NCBI RefSeq assembly: GCF_037042905.1
Contig: NC_087252.1
Location: 806,001-870,000 of the forward strand
Direction: 5' to 3'
DNA: 64,000 bases
Source of the DNA: Lytechinus pictus
Taxonomy: Eukaryota
In this document: positions 7,677 through 64,000 of the stretch, piece after piece
Numbering within the stretch: position 1 is the stretch's first letter
Layout: each line of letters opens with the position of its first letter
Notes under the pieces: generated by a model
What the model was told of the DNA's origin: nothing
The model's input: the letters and a program-made list of their open reading frames with translations, nothing else
Databases searched by the model: none
Translations under genes and position numbers: made by a program

Positions 7677-10600
7677 CTGGCTTCGTTGAGAGTAAGCATA
7701 CGTTAGTAAATGATTTTTACTCTCTAGAAGCCTCCTGGCTAGTCGGGACCCTGGAAACGATTTTTGACTGCGGGTGCTGAGGTAAATTTGAAATGAAAGA
7801 AAACAATTCAAACATTTTTTTTTACATATTTTTTTCAGAATGCCGAAGGTGCTACCTTTGCAGAATGATACACGCAGCACCCTAAGAAAATCATTCAAAG
7901 TAGCACCCCCGCTTCACAGGGCCGTGATGGTTGTGTAAAGTTTGGAGGCATGTATGGATGAAACATAAATAAATTGCAATACTATCCCGCCAATGCATGG
8001 TTATTTAGGATTATGGAATTCTGAGAATGATGAAAGTTGCTTCCGAATTCCATGCTATCATGGAATTCATCTTATTCTCTTTATCTTGGTTTCTTATATA
8101 AGATAAATAAAAAGTTAATAACACTGTATAATCATCAGGGTACAGAAAAAAAGAAAAATGTAACTGGCAAATGGACACACATTGTGTACATGCCTTAATA
8201 AATAGCGGTCTGAAACGAAATGAAAGGAAGCACGATGGTGGCGCTTATAAATTTCACAACCTTTATTCAGCTCCTCGATATAATTGTCTAAATTCTTTGA
8301 ATGCGCCATTCTTATAATTACTTTATTAGATATGGGCACCAATAAATTAAATACCTTCAAAACACAATTAAAGATTATTATTGGCGATGATAACTTTTGG
8401 GGAAATAGTTTAAAATGATGACTAAAAAAAAAAAAAATAGGAAAAAAACGGTGTGCCTTCAACGAAACCAACTTTGTTCAACGAACGGTCCATCAAAGTC
8501 TATACATTGAAAAGATTGGACACTTCACGGACTTCTTGTAATGCTTTGCGTCGATTAGTATTTTGCGTGTAAAATTATTTAGGTGCTTATAATTAGTCTT
8601 CCCTTGTAGTGTGTTTGATATAAATATGAATTGCGTGCCCTCTTTAGACAAAAAAAAAATCGGAATCGCCGAGTGAGATCCACCTTGCTGCTTGTCGATG
8701 AGAAAAGTCCGAGAAGAAAAATTGAAAATTTAAATTTCACCAATTGAATTGGTGAATACTGGGGAAATCCGGATTCACATCGTTCGGTGACATAGAAAAT
8801 GTTTGACCTATTTTGATTAATTATAGTTAGTCCTATTACGTTTTATCCCATGGAATTGGAAGTGTTGCACATGCATGCGCCTCGCCAGGAGGCTCCTACA
8901 GACATGACAGAGTAAAAGACGGGCAAAACTCAAGCTTTCGCCATGCCAAATTCTGCTTTCCCTTTAAAATTTCAAGCCATTAATCATGTAAAATGGGTCG
9001 GTACTTCATTTCTGACATTTATGCAATATTGATTTCATTTTCAGGACCCGCGGAGCGGTTTTCAAAGTGGGGGGGGGGGGGGGCTGACCATGCAAAAAAT
9101 CACAATCTTATGGTAATTTTTACGTTTTTGTACACGGTTTTGGAAAAAAAGTGGGGGGGGGGGGCTGAAGCCCATGAATTCCTCCACTAGATAATTTTTC
9201 CCAAAAAATTACGTCAGTATAAGTGTATACCATGGACTGCATTAGGAACGTCGTCTTCAAGTAGGGGGACTACAGGAGTAGGAAAGAATTGTTAATAAAT
9301 GTATTTGAAAAATCGGCAGCAAAAACGACTAATTACTAAAATGATTCAAGATAAAGTTTAATCATTTATCACATCGAAATAGTCAATTTAGTCATTGATA
9401 AGATAATTAATATTTTAACGATTGATTTGCTTATTAATTTGTTTTACAGACAGCCAGCAGCGGTCCAGTGCAGTGCGCACGTCGAAGTGTCCGGAATTCG
9501 TCCTGGACGTCGAGATCGCAGACGCTCCAGTCGGCGACGCCTTCATAGGCTAGGAGGGGACGCCGGCAACGCATTCTACTGCACGGTATGTACCACACAA
9601 GGGGTGGGGGCATTAATGTGGACAAAAGCCACCAAAGAAGTTAAATTTTCAAGCACCATTTCGCATAATTCACACAAACTTAAACAGATTTTCTACCCTA
9701 GATATAATTTTGGATATGTATATTTTTCGTTATATTTAAAATCATTCACCTAAATGTATTTCATCTCACTAATATATTGATAATTAAACAATGATGACGA
9801 CGGTGATGATGTTAATGATAATAATCATGATAATGATAATAAAGAGATATGAATGATAAAATGACAATAATGATGATAACGGTGATAATATTATTGATAA
9901 TAGTGTTCAAATAAATATAGAAAAATTATGATAACGGTAGCGATTATAACGATCACGACGACGATGATGATTTTAATGATGACAATGATAATGATGGTAA
10001 TTTATTTTGAATGGTAATGTTTATTGTATTGATATCATTTTCTGCAGTCAAAAAGTTGCACAGGGAGAACGATCATGCGGAGGTCGTTCCAGCGTACCGT
10101 CAACGGCTGGATGAGAGGCGGCGACGCGAGGAGGAGCTTGAGCGACTCCATCCTCGACCATGTCGACAAAGATCACCTCGTCTGGTAGCGTGTGAGATCG
10201 CAGCTGCAGCCGCCGCTCAGCTGCAAGCAGCTAGAGAGCAGCGTCGAGACAACCATCGAGCCAACTAGACCCAGCGGAGGTCGGCCTGGATTGCCGCAGG
10301 CAATGTGTGATCGTAGCCTCAAGTAAGTAAGATTTTTGTATAATTGACAGCTGAATTAAAAAAAAAAAATACAGTATTCTATAGCAAAATGGCTCATCAA
10401 TGAACGAAAGCAATATTTAATTTTTACCAATCACAAATGAAATATTCAATGGTACTATTGTAAAAAAAATGACAAGCAAAAAATAAAAGGTCCTCGCTTT
10501 CAAACTGGGGGGACACACTCGCTAAAAATGCAATTTTTGCATTAAACAATTTGATTATTGCTCTCAAGGAGGGGGGAGCACTGGCTCGATGTGCCCCCCC

Positions 10601-41636: not shown

Positions 41637-42719
41637 AATAAATGATTGAAAGAATAAATGAATACATAACAACTACATAAATAAATAAATAAATATTTAT
41701 AATATAAATAAATTATCACCCCTGCTATGGAGATGCAATTTTTTAAAGTAATAACTCATCATTGACATTAATAAAGACATACCTGTTTATACAAGCAACA
41801 TTTATTAAAACTATTATTTTATAAAGTTCGTCATGCTCATTAAACACTCTAAATTGTAGGGAATTAAAAGAAATACAGATGGACTGCAGTTAAAGGAAAA
41901 ATCGAATTCTGGATTTTGTTTGATTCCTATCAATTCTAGTTTGAAATCTCGAGGGATTTGGAATAAATCCTTTGAGATTTTAAAATGATTCTGTACGATT
42001 CAAACTAAATCCTGAATTTGATTGGTCCCCTATCTATCTGGACATATTTTAAATGCCTGCAATTTAGTGTGAAGCTTGCCAGAAACCTGTCTTACCTAGC
42101 AACAGTCTATTATGCAAACATTGTGTTATCGCGGTAAAGTAAATTTAAATTTCTTCGTTATATATGTCTAATCAAGGGGATACATAAAGATATTGGTACA
42201 AGTTCGATGGAAATCCATCAAGAATAAGGTTATGAATGTTTGGTTTGTTTTGTTACGTCATGTGCTAGCAGTTACCCCAAATTTCCTGTAATATAGATTG
42301 CATCACTTCCTTATTCTTAACGGTTCACGATGGCTGAAATATCTTGCTTCGTGTAATTGTCTGATTTTACGTTGGATTCACACGTAGAATCATATCCAAC
42401 TTTCTAAGAAAATTGCATTTTATAAGTTTCATACCACATGACATATTTGGGCAGTTGAAAGCTATTCGCACGCATGACGTCACAAAATCAAAATTTTAGA
42501 TATTCGTAACTGTATTGTCTTTGGCGGGTTTTCGTGGAAAATTAATATTTTATTTTTATAATTTTTTTAAAAACTTCACTTAAAACGTCAGGGTAACCTT
42601 CTCATCATTTCCTACTGGTAAGATAATAACTATACCAGGAGGAAATTATAGATAGTATATGGACAAGGTAACGAAAGCATGTAAACAATGTGTGTCGAGA
42701 AAATCTTTAAAACTCCTAT

Positions 42720-49149: not shown

Positions 49150-50360
49150 ATAGATAATCCAAGGTGTTGTTTGGTTTGAAAGATACAATAGATGGCAAAT
49201 AATTCAATTAAAACAGCTTATAAGGGTAAAAAGAAATCATGTTTGAAATTAATCATTAAAGTGGGGCGAGTTGAAAAAGAAAAATGTCACACTTCTTGTG
49301 CTAAAAGTGAAAACATGATTACATCGATTATAATGGAAGAGCATTTATTTGATAAGAACGCATGATTATCGATAATCATGTAGATGTGATACATACCAAT
49401 ATCCAATCACGCAAACGTATTAGATAAATAGATCATCCGAATCCCAGGTGTTGTTTGACTTGAAAGAAACAATTAAAGACGACAAATAATTCAATTAAAA
49501 CAGCTTGAAGTGTAAAAAGAAATCATCATGTTTGAAATTAATCATTGAAGTGGGGCGAGTTAAAAAAAATGTCACACTTCTTGTGCTAAAGTGAAAACTA
49601 CAAGAGCATCTCGTTGACAATCGATAATCATGTAAATGTAATAAAGAGTACATACCAATATCCGCTCACACAAACGTATAAGATAAATAGATCATCCGAA
49701 TCCCAGGTGTTGTTTGACTTGAAAGAAACAATTAAAGACGACAAATAATTCAATTAAAACAGCTTGAAGTGTAAAAAGAAATCATCATGTTTGAAATTAA
49801 TCATTGAAGTGGGGCGAGTTAAAAAAAATGTCACACTTCTTGTGCTAAAGTGAAAACTACAAGAGCATCTCGTTGACAATCGATAATCATGTAAATGTAA
49901 TAAAGAGTACATACCAATATCCGCTCACACAAACGTATTAGATAAATAGATCATCCGAATCCCAGGTGTTGTTTGACTTGAAAGTCAAGTTCAAGTTCAA
50001 GTTCAATTTATTCAAAAACCAGACATATTATGAGTACAAATCAATGATCAGATGGTACAAAAGAATACATGATACAATATAAACGGTTTTCTAGGACCCC
50101 GAAGAAGCACAGCTTGTGAGTGGGGCCCTATACCTCTAAATAAGATGTAGATCTAAATGCATAAAATGACAAAGGAGAAACAATTAAAGACGACAAATAA
50201 TTCAATTAAAACAGCTGGAAAGGTAAAGAGAAATCATCATGTTTGAAATTAATCATTGAAGTGGGGCGAGTTAAAAAAATGTCACACTTCTTGTGCTAAA
50301 GTGAAAACATGATTAAGTCGATTATAATGGTGTTTAATATGAACGCATGTTGACTATCGA
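49150..50360. repeat. Tandem repeat of a roughly 259-bp unit (4 copies); the last is interrupted by a reverse-strand LINE-tail-like fragment (about 49985-50176)
   Basis: ATAGATCATCCGAATCCCAGGTG at 49428, 49687 and 49946, with a diverged copy at 49150; the insert begins (AAGTTC)n-AATTTATT. Confidence 0.9.
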
Positions 50361-51564
50361 TTTTAGTTATTCAGTTCAGTTCAGTTAAATTCATTTATTT
50401 CCAATTAAAAATCGCAATATAACAATTCATAAAAATATATAATAAATGAGCAAATGTAAATTTATAAAAGTGTTTCACATAAATATATATATATACTGAG
50501 TTTACCATTAAACAATAAAGGAAACAGGGAAGCTATAAAAGCCCATATTATGAAGGTTTGGTCAAGTTTCATGTGTTGTATGTTCGGCAACATACTGTCC
50601 ACAGCTGTGTTGGGTAATGTATGTTGGTAAAAAGTTATATATTCTGGGCAATTATTATCCAATTGAGCAAATTTATTACCTAATTATTCGTTTTTATTAC
50701 CCAATTAGGAAAGATTTTAACTAATAATTATGTGGACAGTATGTTGCCCAGTGATGGTTAAAAATTGGGCCTTTTTGCCCAACCTTTTTAAGAGTGTAAA
50801 TTTGCATGATAAATCAAAATAAAGTACAATGCACGAAAATTAATAAATACAACTGCAAAACCTTACATATAATAATATAGATGTTCAATAAGCATATTCT
50901 CAGGCAGGGATAACTGAAATATATCATTCAAATGTATGACAACTAAAATAATTTTCTTCGTTCATGAAGCTTACATGAACATAAAGGTTAAGTTCGATGA
51001 ACTAATAAATCTTGGCCGCAGTTATTTACCTGATCTAGGGAATCCCGCGATCAGGAAGACATGAAATATCAAGTTTATCAATTTAGATTTTAATTTTGAT
51101 TGGCAGATGACCTTTACCTGATAATCTTCTTTTTTCACGTTCCATCTCGATGTAGATAGACATAATCTCGTAGTTTATAACAACAGCTTAAAACTTTAAG
51201 TCCACATCGGAGACATGTTCATTGTCAATGTAACATTTTAAAGCGTAAGACCAGTCAGAGAACAAAATATATAAGAAAATGTTTTTTTTTTAAAGTAATA
51301 TTTTTAGATTTTGGATAATACAAGAAACCATTCTTTCTCTTTCATGTGATCTGCCACCAAAAAGCAACGAGAATAAGAATAGATCTTAAACATAAAGAAG
51401 GGAAAAAGCAGCGACAGTGCACTTAGGTCTATTCCCAAGAAAATTGGATTTTTGTAACAAAATGCGCCCCCCCCCCAAAAAAAAAAAAAAGCAAAGGGGG
51501 ATCCCCATTTGCAAACCCCTCCATTTAATTGAGACCAATCTCTCTTTCTCTTTTCGTAATTCAG

Positions 51565-54500
51565 ATGGCAGTACTCCGAGTTTCAACGATATTCGCCCTT
51601 CTTTTCTCAATATGCCTTCTACTATCAACGGCACAGGGTGAGTAACATCACAATAAACATTTGTCATCAAATAAGAAGTTGCGATCGACGAGATCATTAC
51701 AATTTTGAGCTCATTTAACTCCTTTCACTGAGGTATTCAGCTCTAACCATTCATTATCTTGATGAGACCCGCCCCCACCAAAAAAATCAATTAATAAATC
51801 AATCAGAAGTTGCGATCGATTAAGATCATAACAATTTTGAGCTCATTGAACTCATTTCGCTGAAGTGTTCAAATCTAACAATTCATTATATTGATGAAGA
51901 CCCCCCCCCCAAAAAAAAAAAAGTAATAATAATGCATAAATTAAAAAAAATGAATAAAAGTATTTGATGAATTCGGTTTTTGTATCATTCATATTTGGCA
52001 AGATATTTCAGGTAATTGTGCTAAACATTTTGATGACTAAATAAAATAATGAAAAAAAAAACCCTCCAGCATGGCCATGCCTTCATCAGTACATCCACCC
52101 GACACCCGCACTAATCCCTTAGCATGTACTAGGAGTATTCATATGTCACTTACTTTATATGCTACCATTGTAGATAAACAGTATAGCTCTTGAACTTGAC
52201 GCATGCTCTAGATTTCAATGCTGTAAAACAATTATAAAAGATGGCATGACCTTGTCTCTCGTCTCACAGCTGTTCCGTATGAAACCCTTGCCGCCAAAAT
52301 TACGTATGCAAAGAGTAATTACGATGCAGTGTTTTGGTTTGCGGGAGAACATTGCCCCCCTTTCCACGTAACATCTACTCTCTAACTTATTTAGATAGAA
52401 ATAGATTGCGATCAGCAGTTCAATCTAATACATTTAGAATTCAATCTTATTCGATTAAAACTTTCGATCCAATTTTGGATTAGTCCCTGGCCACAATAAT
52501 AGATTGACTTTTAACTTACGGATTTAAAGATTGCCTCTCGGGCTAAAGAGGGGCAAAGCCCCCTCCCCCTTCCCAAACACCATCACTTTTTTCTTCAAGG
52601 GGAACTGGAAAAGAGAATACGAGGAGCGAGGAGGAAAAGGAGGAGAGAGGACAGGTTCTCAATCATGAGGAACGCAATATAGGGAAGGTGGCAGAGGTCC
52701 GAATACACCACAATTTTTTATCAAGGGAGTAGAAAAGAAAATGCGAGGAGTGAAAAAAGAAAGAGGGGGATCTCAAACATTTCAGCAGCAAACGAGTGGC
52801 GCGAAGCGCGGCTACCCAAATGACTGTTGTTGGGGTTTCTATTCAAGAGATGGTGGAGCGTGGAAGAAAAGGAGGAGGAGGAGAGAAACGGACGAGGAGG
52901 GCGGGGAAGGTCTGAATGAGAGAGGGGAATAGAGAGATCACACTCGTCTACGGCATATGTGGGGGGATGAAACTCAGTTCAGGTTCACCTTGCACAAGCA
53001 CCAGCCCCCCCTTCCCATGGTGCCAAAAGCAACCCCACCCTGAACAATTATTTTTTGCTTGAATATAATTTTCTTCTTTTTATCGTCCTTGATATTACTC
53101 ATAGTCCTGATAATTAACCACGTAAGTCTGGCTTAGCTAATCAATCAAGTTCATTCCATTCATAAAGAAGAGAACTTGAGAAAATCAGAATTGTCGATAT
53201 GCCAATTCTTATGTCATTATTACTTGGATGAGTTGGATTCTTTCAGCGTTCACCCCCTGGAAATGCCCCCAATGGGTTTGATTACATCAGACGAAATCCT
53301 TAAAATTTATTAACGAAATGTAGGCCGAGTTGTCATGATTTCAATGAAACCTACATTTTCCTCAAAATGAGAATTAAACAAATGTAATAAAACAAAAAGA
53401 CCTGAATATATACGAATCCTTTGCCAAATTAATTCTTTTGATAATAAAAGATATATTTAGTTTATTTTTTAGGACAGGTTGTATTTTCAGAGATGGGGGA
53501 TATCAGAAGTAAGAGAAGCGATAGAATGACTAGATATGCCACATGTATAATAGCTTAAAGTTGTTATTTTTTATTATTATTATTATCATTATTATTATTA
53601 TTGCTGTTGTTGTTCTTATTGTTATTGTTATTTAGCTAATTTACCAATTAAGCACTCATTCCATTTGTCTGTAGCCTTATATGGTGATTACTATATAATC
53701 GAGTAAAAGAAATAAGGATAAGAATAATAACTAGTAGAGTACAATGATATGTGACTCTTTATACGGCTATTTTTTAAGCCAACATGTTGGCTTACTATAA
53801 TTAAGTAATATCAAACTGGTGAAACAATATTAAACTTCGTCAAGGAAATAATACTTGAATCTCTCCAAATAAGTAAAGCAAAAAACAACAACAGAATAAA
53901 GACAATACGAAAGTATTTCCGCATGAATTGTGATTTCAATAAAATCGTAACCCATAAAAACAAATTCAGAGATATCAATTAATAATTTTTACCTCAAATA
54001 TTTGGAATCTTTTGTTCCACTAAGGCACTAATTACATCCTGTGTCGGTGGAAATGTCATGTAATTTCTCACGTCACATAATCCCCCTTATTCAGTTATCA
54101 TGGTTATTGTTTTCCCCATTTTTTTTTCTATGTATATTGTAGTCAGTATTTACTGACTCATCCCGAAGCGTAATCGTGACGTTAACCACAATTAAATGTG
54201 AATCTTAAAAAAACATTTAATGTTGATTCAGTTTGATCGCTGGCATTTCCGATATCGGGAGAAAACAGAAATCCGGGGAAATTTTATTCGATCTGAGGTG
54301 ATGAACTTTTCTGAGTGCAACCTCCTTTGATGTCATCAGAGTTAAAGGCTTCCTCATGTTGTTTGTCCGTATATGGCTATCCTGTCACACTTCTTGTTCA
54401 TAATTGAAAAGTTTGTAATTGAAATTTGGAAGAAACAAAAATATTTAAGGGGATGTGCTACATGTGATTTTCCACATGACGAAAGAGAAAAAATATGAAA

Positions 54501-57500
54501 AAGGGGAAAAGGGAGAGAAGGTGGAGAGAGGGGGAGGGGGGATGCGGCAAGGAGATTTGTCCCGGAACTGTACACTCTATATGGGTTCCATGACATTTGT
54601 TAAGCCAAACATAATAATCTATAAACTCCATCACTAAATAAACCCTAATAATTACCTTTACATTATTCTCAACCAAAATCTCTATTACAATCCTAACTCT
54701 AACCCTATGCCCTCTGAGATATAAGACCTGAGCAAATGTCATAGGAGAAAATGTCGTAGGAGCAAATGTCGTGTCACCACAAAGTGGGTCCCACTTTGTG
54801 GTTGTCTATCCCCCCCACCCCTCGATTCATGAAAGTAAAATTAACCTGCCACCGCCCCTAATTCAACGGAAGAAAAATAACTCAAATGTTAGGCATGTTA
54901 GAGCGACCTCAGCACTGACAGTTATCCGACAGTTACCATAGTAACCATCCGACAGCTGTGCTTCTCAGCCAATCAAACCGAGGAAAGATAAAATGTCGAT
55001 TAAACGCTTTTCAGAACGTTCAACATCTTATCTTTCAAAATGTGTCCCATTTTCAGCGGTAATAATCATTTTTTAGATGATATTGATTGACTAATACACA
55101 ATCATGATGGGAAAATTTTAATTCATTTTATTAGTATGTTGATGTATAGTCGTTTACGGATAAGGGATAATAAGACGTTTGATTGTAAAGGAAATTGATT
55201 TCTCAAAGACGTCGGTGTTATGTATATTTTTGTCACTTTCCTAATCGGTGTTGAACACTGTTACGCCTTGGGTGTTAAGGTTTTTATTTTCTGCGTCGTC
55301 AAAAATCATCAGGTGTAAATATTATACATAAACTGCTATGTTGTTTTATATCAAAATTATTAAATTGGTGCTGATGGTGCTCAGTTCTTTAAAAATTAAT
55401 TCAACCGGGCCCCAAAACTAAACAAAAAAAAGCGTCCCAATCGGATGTTGCTCATATGCCTGTCAGACAAGAATGTCAACATAATATTTGACTTTATCTT
55501 TTTTTCTTTTCAAAGTCAAATGACAAGGTTTGATAACCGGTTTGATCAATAATGCATTATCATCTTTTCATGCTGCGCTCTACTTAATTTACCTGTCGTA
55601 AACATGGCAAATGATTTTCTGTTCCATATCAAATATGATATTTCCTTTTGTTTCAGAAAAAAACAACCTTCATCGTTTAAATGAATTTCCGCCAAAAACC
55701 AGACCTCGCACGCCCTTGGTATAGAGGGTTGATCAGATGATGAACAACAACAGATGTTATTTTGTAATTTTGGAACAATGACTAATTGTGACGCAAAAAG
55801 TTTACCTTTATTACAGTCATTTTCCCCAGTATTTTGTATGCGAGTTTGTAGCCTCTGTTTAATTCAAGTCATTCATTTTCATGTGATATTGCAAAAAAAA
55901 ATTGTCGTCAGGCTCTTGATACAGTGAACAGGTAATTCTCCGACCCCCCCCCCCCCCCCCCCCCCCCCCAGTAAAAGTGCATGTCACTATTTTAAGTCAT
56001 TATCATTTTACATCACTACAAGATCGGGTGCGTGATTGATATCTGTGTATTTTGTTGTTGTTTGTTTATACAAAAACCTTTCTCAAGAAATGGGTTGAAA
56101 ATTCAGGATATAATCTCTTTTTTCAAGCATTCTAATATCCAATGACTAAATTTACAAAGTACATGTAAATACTCAAAGGGTGTAGTCCCCAAACAAGAGA
56201 GGGCGCTAGATGTCAAACGTATTTTTTTTTAAAGTATGAATAAACATCCAATTTCCAAAGACCACTATAATACAATCGTGTTGTTATGAACTATTGATCG
56301 AAGATGTGGAATGATCCTCGAGTATCATTGAGTATAAAGGCGACCGCACACCTTACGACTGGTCTGCGACCCGATTTTAGAATAAAATGTAGTAGTATTT
56401 GATGCTAATATTAAGACTTGGAATATCTTACTGTGTAATGTTCTTAATCATCTTACGAATACCAATGATCAAATTTGTGACTATGCTATCATCCTTCTTA
56501 AAATAAAAGCGAATTTGATATCTAGTCGCAATGACGTCATAGCAGTCGTACGATTGGCTACGATTTGAAACTAATTTGGACTTTACTCCAAAATAAGGGC
56601 TTGCAATCTTTCAAAATGGTTATAATATTATTATTTCAATTAATTTTAACCTCAAATAAAATGATATGTTCCATTCACATCTTCAAAAAATGAGCAAAAT
56701 GCGATTTGTTCCAAAATCGGGTCGCAGACCAGTCGTAAGGTGTGCGGTCGCCTTAAGACCGACCTTAACCCACCGGGGAAGGTGCATCTTTCCACTGGAA
56801 GGCCCTATATTAGTGACGTTGATTTACATGAATGGTATCTTGTTCCCTACTCTTCACGCCCCTTCTCCAGACACACTCATTCAGACGAGCAACATTCTCC
56901 ATGTGTTTTCTTTATTCTTATTTATTTATTTTTTAAGATTTAGATTTGTATCTATAGATTTTATTTCCGTTTTAACGTTAACTTCTCTTAAAACAAGTGC
57001 ACACCGAGTTATTATATAGCATTTCCATTCATTAATTTTGAATGCAGGATAAAAACAGCAAATAATTAAAGAACACTCCCCCCCCCCCCCCCCCCCCTCA
57101 CCCGCCAAAAAGAACTAAAATGAAATGAATAAACCGACAATATGTGATCGTTGGTTTACATTCGATAAATAAATGAGAATTAAAAAGTGATATTAGTTGA
57201 GTAGAATTGTAGTAACAAAGCATAGGATCATCATCATCATCAACATCATCAACCTCACCATTTCTATTAGTTTTATTATTATTATCACTATTATCATTAT
57301 TATTGTTATTGTCATTATTGCTATTATCATTATTATTACTAGTATTATTATTATTCAATTATCATTATTATTATTATTATTATCATTATTATTATAATTC
57401 AATTATCATTATTATTATTATTATTATTATGACAGTTCTTGTTATCATTTTCATGAATTTCAGTGAAAACAATGAGCAGTACGTAAGACATGCCAAGACC

Positions 57501-58128
57501 CCCCCCCCCCCCAAAAAAAAAAAAAAAACGAAAGTAGAGGGCGTCAACACTTTGCACTGTTACGTTCGTAGGCGGTAGGTGACTGCTTTTCTGATTATGA
57601 TTTTTTAGTCAGTCATCCAACTTCATAGGCATAAAGATAATATTGAAACCTATATATAAATAAAAAATTATGTACGTAACTCAAATAATAACTTTAACAA
57701 GTCTCAATACTCTTCATGTATCCCGAGGAATAGACCTCTGGCAAGATTGAAAGCTGTCAAGAATAGAATATATATATATTAATTCTAAAAGTTGATTTAA
57801 AGAACAAGGTCAAAAAGAATTTAAAGAATGTTAGATAGCGGTCTAATCAGGATTGTCTTGTCTGGTCTCTGGTATAACAGGACGACCAGCAAGGAGAGAG
57901 GACAGATCAGCCGAATCCGGTAGTGATTCTAGCAGCAGTAGCAGTAGTAGCAGCAGTAGCTCCTCCGAGGAGATAGATAACCGACCACCAACTGTTGCGA
58001 CCACCACTACGACGACCACCACAGCCCCGACCACGCAACCGCCTACTACCGCGATGCCAGTCATGACGACATGCGTCGTTCGAGGTGACGGCATCCTAGT
58101 CTGCCGTCCAGTGGCGGCCATTCCCTAG
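51565..58128 (+). CDS. Small secreted Ser/Thr-rich orphan protein, 106 aa (exons 51565-51637 + 57881-58128), with SSEE and RGD motifs
   Basis: Polypyrimidine-CAG|ATG exon encodes MAVLRVSTIFALLFSICLLLSTAQ G with a GTGAGT donor (phase 1). It joins in frame at AACAG|GA to RPARREDRSAESGSD(S)13EEIDNRPPTVA(T)8APTTQPPTTAMPVMTTCVVRGDGILVCRPVAAIP*. Ser and Thr runs use mixed codons. AATAAA at 58326. Extra internal exons cannot be excluded. Confidence 0.75.
51668..51915. repeat. Diverged tandem duplication of about 133 bp just after the signal-peptide exon
   Basis: AGAAGTTGCGATCGA..ACAATTTTGAGCTCATT..CTAAC.ATTCATTAT.TTGATGA occurs twice. Confidence 0.85.
56338..56753. mobile_element. PIF/Harbinger (Tourist-like) MITE
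   Basis: About 41-bp perfect TIR AGGCGACCGCACACCTTACGACTGG..; TAA TSD. Confidence 0.9.
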
Positions 58129-58449
58129 TTCGTTCTTTGGACCAAATAACAGCACTGGATTTTTAAAGAAGATCGGATGAACATCGTTTTGAAGAGGAGA
58201 CAGATGACAAACAATTTAATAATTGAGAGAAGACCGCTTGGCATCTGCGTTTCAAGCGAAAGTTCTTGTTCTGCGTTAGACCCTAGACCCGAACATTGCA
58301 TTTGACCTTGAACCGATATAAGCCAAATAAAACGAACGGTTTACATAACAAAAACCCTGAAAGTTAACACAACATCTTTGACAGAATTTAGGCCTGAAAT
58401 TAATGTTAAAGTTAATTCACTAATGACACCCTGTCCTGAAACCAACCGG

Positions 58450-58750
58450 TGGGTGTTTTATAAAGCTGTTCCCTTAAGCACGACTGGTGCTAAATAATCA
58501 CCAATGAACATGTAATGGTGAATATCATTTACCACAAGAAATGATAACCAGTCGTTCTCATAAAGTCACTCTTAAGTTACGAACGGCTTTATGGAACGGC
58601 CCCCAGGGACCCCGTTCCATAAAACATGCTAAAATAACAAATTTGCAATAACAGTTTAAAGCTACTGAAATCCTTCAATTTGATTGGCTGATGGTAAACT
58701 TGTAGAAAGTGTGCATTTAACATTATAACGAGTCTTTATGAAACGGGCCT
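58450..58750. mobile_element. Two short adjacent Harbinger-like MITEs (relatives at 286-620 and 16180-16349)
   Basis: GGGTGTTTTATAAAGCTGTTC..CTTTATGGAACGGCCCC followed by GGACCCCGTTCCATAAA..TTTATGAAACGGGCC, with a CAG junction. Confidence 0.55.
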
Positions 58751-60525
58751 AAGATATCTTCACTCTTCTACAGTATCATTCCATGTCAAGGTGATATTCA
58801 TTGGGTAAATGTACTACTAGCAATATTTCATTTTATGATATTAACATAAGTTAGCCTCTTTTTACTCTGCGCTAAATCTCCTGTAAACTAATCCAGTATT
58901 TATAATACCATATTTTGATAAGTTCCCACTTGTCGGGTATACCATGAACCTTGGATGTACCAACGCAGGGACCGCGGAACCGTTATGAAAAGGAGGTGGT
59001 CTGAAATCGCATGAAATACAGTTTTATGATGGTCAGTTACTGGGGTTTATTCTTTAGTTGGTGTTGTTGCATAGTTACTGGTGAAAGTGAAATGGGTAAT
59101 CCAGCCCCCTCCCCAACCCACCCCCCCCCCAACTTCCCGGTTATGCTGCCCGTGCAATAATCCCACATGACTCTCTTTTCCATTCCAGTAACTTTATTTC
59201 TCTGTTTATACACTGCATGGAAAGGTGATTTATCACAATTTAGTTTCCTTGCCTTTTGCCCATTCTTTAAAAGTATTTGGGTGTATTTTCGGGTTGTTTT
59301 TTTTCCATTTCATTTATATCACAATCATATCCACGAGGCTTGCAGTTGCATTATTTGTGTAGTATATATTTCAGCAATGACGTAAAGAAAGGGTGGAGTG
59401 CAATGTTATAACATTTTTGTTATTATGTAAAAATCTATCCAAAATTTAATTTTTACATTTTTGTAAAAATTTTCTTTATCAGCCTTTTAAGCCACTATGT
59501 ATTTGAGTACATAATGAGCAACCTAATTATGAACCAAAAAATAGAGCTTAGGTGTAGTTTTGTCAATTGCTTGACAGGAAGGGGCAAATAAATATCTTTA
59601 TACATGTACTAAGTTTGTTTTGTGTCAATACAAGAATGGCGCTTACAGCATGTACAGCACTTTAGTGTTGTATCATTGACCTAGGTCCATGGTGTTCATA
59701 GTGTTAATAATGCTCCTGCGACATTTTGCTCCGGTCTTAATATCTTTGGACATCGGATTAAAGTTAGGATTGCAATAGAGTTTATTTTGTCCGGAATAAT
59801 GCAAAGATAATGATTAGTGTTCATTTAGTTTTGGAGGTTAGATTTTATGTTTGGCTTAACGAGCAGAATTTCCATCGGAGCATTTGTCGCCGGAGCAAAT
59901 GTCCTGGAACTTATTAAAATATAGCAGACACAATGACAGATTGAGTAAATATGGTTGCTTAATATCTGGATTTATACGATATGGTGACCCTTAGTCAGAT
60001 ATTTGTTTGTATCCGTAAGGGTTTTCACTTGCATGTTCTTATATAACTTTACAATATTGATATCTGAACTTTACTTAAGCACTCCACTTCGAGATCAAAT
60101 CGACTGAACCAACAAAATTTTCAAAGTCAGATGAAAAATAACAAATATTCACGGTCCACGGCGATGTTGTGTTCCAAAGACTTAGGCCTAAATATATCTT
60201 TAAATTATCACTAATTTGTTGTTCTCTTTGATCTTCCTTTATTGATTTTATTGAAAGGACAGTTACGTGGTCATGTACCTCTATAATTGTGCAACGTTAT
60301 TATTGAAAAATTGCACCCAAAAGAAGTAATTATGATGCCTTTAATGGGTGCCAACTTTTTTTAGTGCGCGAGATTTATCTTAACATAGCTGTATCTATTT
60401 GTATATTTTGGGTTTTTTTATAATTATATGTATAAAACTGCAACTCTATGACTTATAGTGGACATTATACTGTTAATTAAATTAATATAACATAATGCAA
60501 ATTGGTTTTGTCATCATGGATGCTG

Positions 60526-60741
60526 CACTGCAAAAACTCTGGTGTTGATTTAACACCAGCCCGGAATATATATATGTCCGCACCAGAAAAGTATTGAAAC
60601 AACACCAGTTTGGTGTCAAACCGATGCTGTTTTAATACTAATTGGTGTTTATAAACACCTTTCTGGTGTTAGACCAAAACGAAACTGGTGTTGACATAGA
60701 TTCCGGGCTGGTTTTAAATCAACACCGGAGTTTTTGCAGTG
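60526..60741. mobile_element. CACTG-terminated (CMC/EnSpm-like) MITE
   Basis: About 40-bp TIR CACTGCAAAAACTC..; 2-bp TG TSD. Confidence 0.85.
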
Positions 60742-60932
60742 TGTATCTTCGGGATTCTATTTTGTTTTCTTCATTTCCCAATGAGTGGAGGTTATGCCAT
60801 TTGAAACTGATGTGCGGAAATCTATAGGTAGGCAATGGATGATTTCAAGTCCGGTGTTGGCGTTGGTGTTGGTTTTGGTGTTGAAATTTGGATTGCTTCC
60901 CCTAGCTCCAAAACCTATCCTGAGTTTGTTAA

Positions 60933-61535
60933 TGGTCAAGTCCACCCAAAAATATGTTGATTTGTAAAAATAGATAAAAATCAAACTAGCATAACACTGA
61001 AAATGTTATCAAAATCTGATGTGAAATAAGAAAGTTATGACATTTTAAAGTTTCGCTTATTTTTCACAAAACAGTGATATGCACATTCCAGTGACATGCA
61101 AATGAGACAGTCGATGATGTCCTCCACTCACTATTTCCTATGTTTTCTATTGTTTGAATTATACAATATTTCATTTTTTACAGATTTGACAATACGGACT
61201 AACTTGACTGAACCATATAGTATTAAACAATGCCTAATTCCACATGTTCATGGAGAAAATACCCGTTGTTTCACTTGAGAATGAGTAGAAAATTAGAATA
61301 TTTCATATTTCATATGATAAAATACAAAATGAATAGTGAGTGGATGACTTCATTAGTCTCCTCAATTGCATATCCAGCAGGATGTGAATAAAACTGTTTT
61401 GTGAAATTAAGCAAAACTTTAAAATGTCATAACTTTCTCATTTCACATCCGATTTTGATAAAATTTTCAGTGTTATGCTTGTTGGATTTTTCTCTTTTTA
61501 TTCAAAACAACTTTATGTTGGGGTGGACTTGTCCT
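60933..61535. mobile_element. Kolobok-like MITE family A, full length
   Basis: TTAA flanks; same body as the other copies. Confidence 0.88.
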
Positions 61536-61873
61536 TTAAACTGATCCAGATCACATTATTGACATCTCAACAACTAGCATGACTAGTGAGTGACTCTTCA
61601 GGACCATCTTCATTTTATGTTTGGTGTTATACTCGTTATAAAAATGAATTAACACCAACACCAAAAGGTCATTACTGAACTTGAAATCACACAATATAGG
61701 CCTACTTAGAAAGTAGGCGATGTGAGAATATATTTTGATGAAAGAGGGGGTTTGGGGATGGTGAACGAAATAAAAGGGTGAGGGCGAAACCAGAAATATT
61801 GAGAAAGAGTTTTTAGTGATGTGCGTATGTGAAAGTTGAGAAATTATTAAGGAAATATAAATGTAAAGGCTAA

Positions 61874-62652
61874 GGGTGCGTTTATCCGCCACTTTTTTAA
61901 CCTAGAATCATGATCTGAATCATGATTCAAATCATGATTCTGCAGAATCACGATTGCGTTTAGTCGAAATTGAATATAATCATGATTAGAATCACAAACA
62001 CGAAAAAAGGGGCGTTTGGAAAGACGTTTCTGCAGAATCACGTACGAAAATGTTCGAATAAACGATATCGTGATTTGAATCATGATTATATGACCTCACT
62101 GTTGTGTCGGGCTACTTTTGGTTTGACTCTTACCAAGCTCAAGGCGCTCTTTTTGCTCATTGTATGTACATGATCATGTACTACGCATGCATTTCTTGTC
62201 ATATTCAAATTCTGTGTTGGTCATTGCATCATCCACTACTTTTCATTTTTTTGGTCATGTCTTCAAGTTCTAGTAAATGAATTAACTGGACAGAAAATGA
62301 TCTCAGTTGTTGTTGAGTACACCAATATCAAATTGGATCTACGCTGAAATTAACTCCCGAACACCATTTTGGATAAACTAACAAGATGAATATAAGCATA
62401 TGGACCCTATATGATAGAAGTAAACAAAATGGGGGTATTTCGAGAGCCAAAACACGTGCGAAAAACTTCCTCTGTCAAACTGCGCACTAGTGATGCGCAC
62501 TGGATTGGCCCGAATCTGAGGAGAAACAGCATTGGAATGATGGTCGTCTAAACGCTGATTCTGTGATATTGTGATTCATGTTTGTGTTTTGAATCATGAT
62601 TCAAATCATGATTCAAATCATGATTCTGGCTTGAGGTCGCATAAACGCAGCC
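61874..62652. mobile_element. PIF/Harbinger-like MITE
   Basis: TAA TSD; GGGTGCGTTTAT / ATAAACGCAGCC; subterminal AATCATGATT repeats. Confidence 0.8.
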
Positions 62653-64000
62653 TAAGAGAGAGAGAGAGAGGGGGGGGGGGCCAGAGGAGGGGCCATGACC
62701 GGACATCTGTGTCAGTATACCATGTACAGGAGAATGCGGCCGAAAATTTGGTCAGGAAGGAATTAGAGCCGGTTCTCGGAACACTATCGACCGGCGGATT
62801 CAGAACCAATTTCTGTTCGGCAGATTTCGTTCTTAATTGCTATCGTTTCTCGATCTCCAAGCCGCACGGTACTCATTTCCTTCAAAATTATAGAGGACCT
62901 ACAACTTTTGTTTATCTATTTTAATAGGAAGATAAATAATAAGAAAATCAAACCGCGGCAGCCCAGCAGATATGGTTCGAGTAAAGAACGATATCTGCCG
63001 TTTAAAACGATACCTGCCGGCGGATTCCGCCGGTGGAACAAGATCTGCTGCTTCACCGTCGAGACGTGGGCAACAATCTAGAAATCGGGAGCAAATCAGC
63101 AAATACAATTTCCTGAAGTAGTATGATCTAGTATGTTATTGCAATATTTTCCCCATCTTCCCTTTTAAAGAAACAAATAATTAGCTTTGCGTTAACTCGT
63201 AAGGATTGCCGAAATTGTTCGTTCTATTTCGACCGGTCAAAGAAAAAAGTCCAAACAATTTTTGCTAACATGCCCCGATACCCACGAACAAGTTCGAAAG
63301 TTTTCGCACATCGACGATGAATAAATCCTGAAACGTACATGTATATAGCAAATACAGGTCAAATCACAATAAAGTCTTTGTATATGGTCGGTGAATTGGA
63401 ACAGCAGTTTAGTCGGTGACTCCTGGACAAACGACATAATTATTGGCGATTTTTCTTTATATTTAGTTCCCACTTTCAAAATTCACATCACGATTCAAAC
63501 TGTGCTCTTAATCGTGTTGTAATCGTAATGATCGTATCAGATCAGTCGTGGCAATCGTATTGATCGTAGTAAAATATGGAATGGTTCAAATATTTTTGCG
63601 ATCAGTTACGAAAGGCCAATCGTGGTAACTGATCACGCGACAATTGGGATCGAGCCATCAGATCTGACACGACGGACGAAACTTCTGATCCGAGTCCACC
63701 AATCCTCAACAAAGACTTCATTTTGATTTGACTTTTGTATTTTCAATACATTTGCTAAGTTGTAGGATTCATTCTGCATGTTCTGCGTCCCAATGCTCTT
63801 CAAAACTCTTTGAAGACGATGTTGACGAAGTTTTGGCGAAGTTGCCGATTTGTTTTTTCGACAGTGATTGATCATCATCGAAACTACATCATACACAGTA
63901 AAACCGCTGTTTAAGATTTTATTCAACGCTGTTTACTATATGAACCTTACAGTATTTGTTTAACCGTTCAAACAATCATGTTTAATCGCTGATGTGGTTT

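Follow-up and report, generated by a model that had tools for sequence, protein, structure and literature searches.

A 64,000-nucleotide stretch of the Lytechinus pictus genome (NC_087252.1, positions 806,001 to 870,000 of the forward strand; hereafter the window) contains an echinoderm gene for a miniprotein that has apparently not been described before; its design is like that of the vertebrate SIBLING proteins but was apparently reached independently. One signal-peptide exon probably splices to one or the other of two duplicated last exons, here called A and B, giving chains of 106 and 131 amino acids (aa). Each combines an acidic serine block, a Thr/Pro stalk and a loop, predicted to be Cys-closed, that carries the tripeptide RGD. 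Assembled contigs show that both last exons are transcribed and spliced, and that the gene is real is close to certain. We tentatively read its product as a secreted adaptor between a calcium-rich mineral or matrix and integrins.

Exon structure and transcription

A first-pass annotation, made from the letters alone, had proposed two exons that splice in frame across a phase-1 intron, and its coordinates and reading frame are borne out. The signal-peptide exon (51565..51637, + strand) comprises 24 codons and one base and ends at a phase-1 donor, G|GTGAGT. It is followed by a phase-1 intron of 6243 bases (51638..57880, + strand) and by terminal exon A (57881..58128, + strand; acceptor AACAG), the two exons together encoding 106 aa and a stop. 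Contigs and reads of four out of 18 available runs (X1, X4, X12 and X16) were placed on C8:863800-871800, X1 and X12 coming from two separate studies whose kind of data is guessed or uncertain. A 681-base X1 contig (record 1) and an 897-base X12 contig (record 9) match the genome starting with the last G of the acceptor of exon A and continue unbroken through the stop, and both carry 28 non-matching letters ahead of the acceptor (record_from 29). Because the match of these contigs begins at the 57881 acceptor and passes through the stop, exon A is spliced and terminal, and the protein is not part of a longer one at its 3' end. Further contigs extend the 3' untranslated region (UTR) of isoform A to 60279, short of an ATTAAA at 60476 that is the likely poly(A) signal, while an AATAAA at 58326 is read through. 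We place this UTR at 58129..60481 (+ strand), with a probable end point beyond the contigs.

The gene had been taken for a single unit ending at 58128. This view has to be abandoned, since a paralogous terminal exon B lies at C8:870692-871014 (+ strand), 690 bases past the end of the window, with the same AACAG acceptor and the same phase 1. Joined to the same signal exon, it would give the 131-aa chain, with its RGD at C8:870964-870972. A 311-base X1 contig (record 7) matches from the acceptor of exon B onward and likewise carries 28 non-matching letters (record_from 29). When a k=31 graph was simulated, splicing a single exon to the two acceptors produced exactly the offsets observed; splicing to A alone gave an offset of 73, unspliced acceptor reads 1 and unspliced donor reads 29. 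The contigs further require an upstream exon that ends in a non-A base followed by G, a requirement that 51637 fits and that none of the five internal-exon candidates in the intron fits. We infer the junction 51637^57881 from where the exons lie, from their phase and from the failure of any other exon to fit. Of the junction as first predicted, the acceptor is thus seen spliced in contigs of two studies, while the donor is not read directly.

Exon B, too, is spliced, in an identical phase, and lacks a separate signal exon, so that A and B probably share one. Alternatively, A and B could be separate genes in tandem, with a diverged signal exon belonging to B, an arrangement that we consider improbable. 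Two points speak for it and against a shared exon: unspliced donor reads yield the same contig offset, and the 28 upstream letters are known by length only. However, three scans of the 6.5 kb that separate A from B turned up no convincing signal exon, and the weak candidates (59011 and 59167) fall within unspliced 3' UTR contigs of A. Moreover, the signal exon is single-copy in protein and DNA searches of the whole genome (812 Mb, 368 contigs). Across 264 kb and both strands there are 12 hydrophobic candidates running from an ATG to a phase-1 donor, and only the one at 51565 has an acceptor at its ATG.

That candidate acceptor (51540..51564, + strand), a polypyrimidine tract and CAG, stands at distance 0 from the ATG. 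Because it abuts the ATG, a further exon upstream is implied; a scan for donors did not locate this exon and gave one strong donor near the locus, at 42617. A near-perfect 259-base tandem repeat lies upstream of the signal exon (49390-49984), and a 132-base duplication lies directly after its donor (51670-51917). Beyond the UTR of isoform A, a repeat-rich spacer (60482..64000, + strand) is likely the remainder of the isoform B intron, leading to exon B. Between exons A and B there is a very abundant 608-base repeat (window ~60930-61538; L042:3130-3739), which 362 X16 reads from other copies skip; it is thus an element inserted within another repeat.

Contig depth on A and B was 22 and 20 in X1, compared with 9 and <1 in X12; this contrast is a weak hint of regulated exon choice, in runs that were picked with A. 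In X4, from a second organism, a 195-base contig aligns to 58033-58227 without a gap, at 14 differences, and spans the RGD and the stop; the fit is known by span and difference count.

Conserved features of the two last exons

A genome search with exon A returned eight matches, namely exon A itself, six simple repeats and one true paralog, exon B; in a further genome search, 9 of 11 matches were weak. A degenerate motif pattern occurs at only two places in the 812 Mb, exons A and B, which excludes only a third close copy because the pattern was designed from these two exons. The exons are identical at 44 of 79 aligned residues, and at 28 of these 44 the codons differ. Over 38 non-repeat codons the proportion of differences is 0.84 at synonymous sites (pS), which are saturated, and 0.32 at nonsynonymous sites (pN); this is the figure to trust because the alignment of the repeats is unreliable. 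The comparison indicates that both exons are under purifying selection. What has been kept is R-x-x-R before SAES, an acidic Ser-Gly, SSEE, the Thr/Pro stalk and C-V-x-R-G-D-x4-C. SAE (within SAES), SSEE, both Cys and RGD had been picked out in exon A at first pass, and their presence in the diverged paralog strengthens that choice; the second last exon, the conserved R-x-x-R, the acidic Ser-Gly of both exons and the host clade had been missed.

The leader encoded by the signal exon has a hydropathy peak of 3.0, and cleavage would follow the A-Q-G end of the predicted signal peptide. No hydrophobic stretch follows the leader, C-terminal hydropathy being at most 1.3. Directly before SAES stands R-x-x-R (57895..57906, + strand), a minimal proprotein-convertase motif at which the furin rule predicts a second cleavage. 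Next comes the acidic Ser block (57907..57972, + strand), which runs from SAES to SSEE (57961-57972) and has 16 Ser among its 22 aa, as well as one acidic Ser-Gly, a possible glycosaminoglycan site. All 16 Ser are predicted to be reachable by an S-x-E/pS phosphorylation cascade, compared with 5 in exon B, while direct S-x-E sites number 3 in A and 4 in B.

Thirteen Ser precede the EE, as first described. The accompanying claim that this run is not a simple microsatellite needs correction. AGC and AGT make up most of its codons, and 57930-57960 is flagged by Tandem Repeats Finder; because of both, the length of the run was probably made by slippage. A microsatellite artefact was rejected on the strength of the spliced contigs and the purifying selection.

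The Thr/Pro stalk (57973..58071, + strand) has 15 Thr and 6 Pro among 33 aa, is predicted to be disordered and is probably O-glycosylated. It leads to a Cys-x9-Cys loop (58072..58104, + strand) with RGD at 58081-58089. The two Cys of this loop, at 58072 and 58102, are the only ones in the mature chain of isoform A, in agreement with the initial description. Exon A has no His and no N-glycan sequon, of which exon B has one, and the mature chain of isoform A has only 3 Gly.

An AlphaFold2 model of exon B was built from the two-sequence alignment (mean predicted local distance difference test, pLDDT, 62; predicted template modelling score, pTM, 0.23). Its only secondary structure is a pair of strands, 86-92 and 96-102, at pLDDT 76-84, with RGD (92-94) at the turn and Cys89 opposite Cys99 by strand register; the stalk has none. 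A beta-hairpin with RGD at its tip is thus predicted for B and, by extension, proposed for A. Among 200,000 shuffles of exon A, RGD alone arose in 1.3% and a Cys-flanked RGD in 0.03%.

Possible function and alternative explanations

We propose, tentatively, that the gene encodes a lineage-restricted adaptor with an anchor, a stalk and a tip, made as two isoforms. After removal of the signal peptide and trimming at R-x-x-R, the chain would start at SAES. A Fam20C kinase would then phosphorylate up to 16 Ser in A and 5 in B, creating a cluster able to hold calcium-rich mineral or matrix. O-glycosylation would stiffen the stalk, and a disulfide-closed hairpin would present RGD to integrins. With stalks of 33 aa in A and 62 aa in B, the isoforms would differ in both charge and reach. 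That the loop serves as an integrin ligand is somewhat better than an even bet. That the anchor sits on skeletal calcite and not on soft matrix is a guess, and a doubtful one. Unlikely still is the strongest form of the proposal, namely that sea urchins independently invented a SIBLING, an RGD ligand gluing integrin focal adhesions to the calcite skeleton. Its end phosphorylated by Fam20C would sit on the mineral and its disulfide hairpin on the integrin, and phosphate load and stalk length would depend on which last exon is used.

Fam20C prefers S-x-E/pS (PMC7948968), and Fam20C-family exons were matched on three contigs of the genome. An RGD peptide is described as binding membrane extracts of sea urchin gastrulae (PMC10250714). 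Focal adhesions are reported to form around spicules, and an ITGA8-like alpha chain to be expressed (PMC12705340). The receptor side is plausible because of these reports of RGD-binding membranes, spicule focal adhesions and an ITGA8-like chain. Adaptors that combine a phosphoserine cluster with RGD to link cells to mineral are regarded as a vertebrate invention. Focal adhesions at spicules have been reported, yet the candidate ligand that was tested, sea urchin Npnt, is described there as having no RGD (PMC12705340); the two-isoform gene is a concrete candidate.

Several observations weigh against this proposal. The first-pass suggestion of mineral binding, with a role in skeleton, tooth or adhesion, is supported by no result. 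A search of skeletal proteomes, which had been suggested as a check, gave no match: the motifs occur neither in nine supplement files nor in the main text of a spicule proteome (PMC2909932), and the main text of a test and tooth phosphoproteome, as far as available, has no matching peptide and contains neither RGD nor SSEE (PMC2830187). The main texts of the tooth and the test and spine proteomes likewise had no match (PMC2614417, PMC2527298), and the motifs were not found in one supplement of PMC11574069. The long Ser run is not conserved in exon B. Local identity between A and B is 13/26, which gives an 11% chance that three given residues stay, and a loose Cys-RGD-Cys motif was observed twice in 264 kb, compared with 0-1 times in each of 10 shuffles. 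The model of exon B, at the scores given above, rests on two sequences only. Finally, neither exon had any coverage in X16, a run of raw RNA (depth 0 in 8.7 million records, ~6% of the run); expression is therefore not general.

The alternative that fares best keeps the integrin ligand and drops the mineral: a small phospho-mucin with a matricellular role in soft matrix, epithelium, tube foot or wound tissue. The S-x-E/pS motif marks more than two-thirds of secreted phosphoproteomes (PMC7948968) and is common in all kinds of secreted protein, beyond those of mineral. In addition, B retains its RGD with only 5 cascade Ser, RGD peptides are reported to delay gut regeneration in a sea cucumber (PMC8718600), and the skeletal proteome texts searched hold no trace of the protein. 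However, SSEE and SAES have both been kept despite saturated synonymous divergence, and a short, heavily modified protein would easily be missed in tryptic searches. On this evidence we regard an integrin ligand with no mineral role as rather unlikely, though not negligible. If the gene is non-skeletal, it would still represent a matricellular family of echinoderms that has not been described, and would cleanly illustrate how duplication of a last exon makes isoform variety.

It is also possible that the RGD is incidental, the protein being a small mucin or proteoglycan whose Cys hairpin serves self-association or a different partner and whose Gly-Asp has been kept for the turn. This would fit the chance of retention at the local identity, the acidic Ser-Gly in both A and B, and the place of Gly-Asp within the predicted turn. 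However, the Arg has been kept too, while both residues flanking RGD differ between A and B. The tip of a stalk-borne loop is an established display place of RGD integrin ligands, and the RGD here is predicted to lie at just such a tip. With these points on both sides, an incidental RGD seems unlikely.

A soluble integrin modulator or opsonin, released in an immune or defensive secretion and resembling a one-loop disintegrin more than a matrix anchor, is very unlikely. Soluble integrin antagonists typically carry their RGD in a Cys-closed loop, and the zero depth of both exons in X16 would suit such a role. The Trf immune proteins of sea urchins moreover combine a leader exon with an RGD-bearing exon (PMC5491942). 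However, the absence of His from exon A and the 3 Gly of the mature chain mean that the protein is not Trf-like, there are only two copies and no diversified family, and no cleavage site would free the loop from the stalk, R-x-x-R lying only near the N-terminus. A neuropeptide precursor was rejected, as no basic site would release the Cys loop.

Comparison with known proteins and genomic surroundings

The protein had been called an orphan, and the searches agree. A protein search with exon A alone gave 2 candidates and none at E up to 1. With the A/B alignment, 6063 candidates at near lengths and 7973 scored at longer lengths included no homolog. HMMER found 0 matches among 1.84 billion representative sequences, and sequences of the PDB gave none at E up to 10. 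The ESM Atlas returned no usable match to exon A and the C-terminus of B, which is not evidence of novelty. In Pfam (56 frames), no window frame tested reached the cut-off; a DUF3439 match (E 0.0045, below the cut-off) was rejected as compositional. The literature searched contained no description of the protein. The protein collections searched are probably thin for echinoderms, and the gene may be annotated elsewhere as uncharacterised.

The initial reading had been of a SIBLING-like design without SIBLING descent, and this distinction holds. The gene is not a member of the SIBLING/SCPP family: there is no detected homology, the host is an echinoid and the neighbours are a NACHT/TPR gene, a nuclear receptor and immunoglobulin exons. 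The exclusion rests mainly on host and neighbours, because homology between low-complexity sequences is hard to detect. The host genome has a Bindin match (237 bits, above the cut-off), which none of 14 control genomes has; the match marks the host as an echinoderm, most likely a sea urchin. Introns of SCPP genes are phase 0, whereas the intron here is phase 1 at both acceptors. The chains are 106-131 aa long, a C-terminal, Cys-closed predicted hairpin bears the RGD, the stalk is mucin-like, and isoform A has no N-glycan sequon. The SIBLINGs (SPP1, IBSP, DMP1, DSPP and MEPE) form a vertebrate gene cluster, whereas variety here arises through duplicated last exons. They do share with this gene a small signal exon with the start codon, a large last exon, acidic Ser clusters with S-x-E, an RGD and predicted disorder (PMC3250972). 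In SIBLING genes exon 1 is non-coding and the start codon lies in exon 2; here the ATG directly follows an acceptor. The protein may work like a SIBLING, through a phospho-acidic anchor, a stalk and a tip that would bind integrins.

Among sea urchin proteins, P16/UTMP16, phosphodontin and Glean3:20139 are also Ser- or acid-rich phosphorylated matrix proteins without known domains (PMC2830187, PMC2758014), and the phosphosites of Glean3:20139 adjoin a Pro/Thr-rich stretch (PMC2830187). However, the P16/UTMP16 proteins are characterised by a C-terminal transmembrane and cytosolic segment, and UTMP16 has a transmembrane segment (PMC2758014); the present protein has none. Phosphodontin consists of short acidic repeats, unlike this protein, and the main text of PMC2830187 contains no RGD. 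The SpTransformer (Sp185/333) and HeTrf proteins are likewise sea urchin proteins with a leader exon, a single exon for a disordered mature protein and an RGD. Their genes are <2 kb, clustered and present in ~50 copies, whereas this gene has a 6.2 kb intron and two last exons. Trf proteins have a Gly-rich region, a central RGD and a His-rich region, whereas this protein has neither region and its RGD is C-terminal. Alternative splicing, likely here, is excluded in Trf (PMC5491942).

In disintegrins and other Cys-looped integrin antagonists, too, RGD stands at the tip of a Cys-held loop. The disintegrin domain has several disulfides, whereas this protein has at most one; it also has no disintegrin match in Pfam, no sequence match in the PDB, a stalk-borne loop and an acidic N-terminus.

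Pfam matches identified a DUF4062/NACHT/TPR gene on the upstream side; downstream they marked a nuclear receptor, immunoglobulin (Ig) exons and a BEL/Pao element. The DUF4062, NACHT-like and TPR exons lie at L024:376-3597, L023:1687-2025 and L022:6040-6378, with a long terminal repeat-type retroelement on the opposite strand among the TPR exons. The BEL/Pao retrotransposon, with long open frames, is at C8:878228-883432 (L009:8228-10000, L010:1-3432), 7 kb beyond exon B. The nuclear receptor gene (zf-C4 and ligand-binding domain; L010:7828-8457 and L012:3064-3360) is a useful synteny anchor, and a run of Ig C2-set/I-set exons follows ~90 kb downstream (L017:9673-9999, L018:1008-9515). Two GC-rich stretches at 9450-9585 and 10048-10325 (+ strand) have no Pfam match in the frames tested; both have canonical acceptor and donor sites and could be exonic, whether from a different gene or from a pseudogene.

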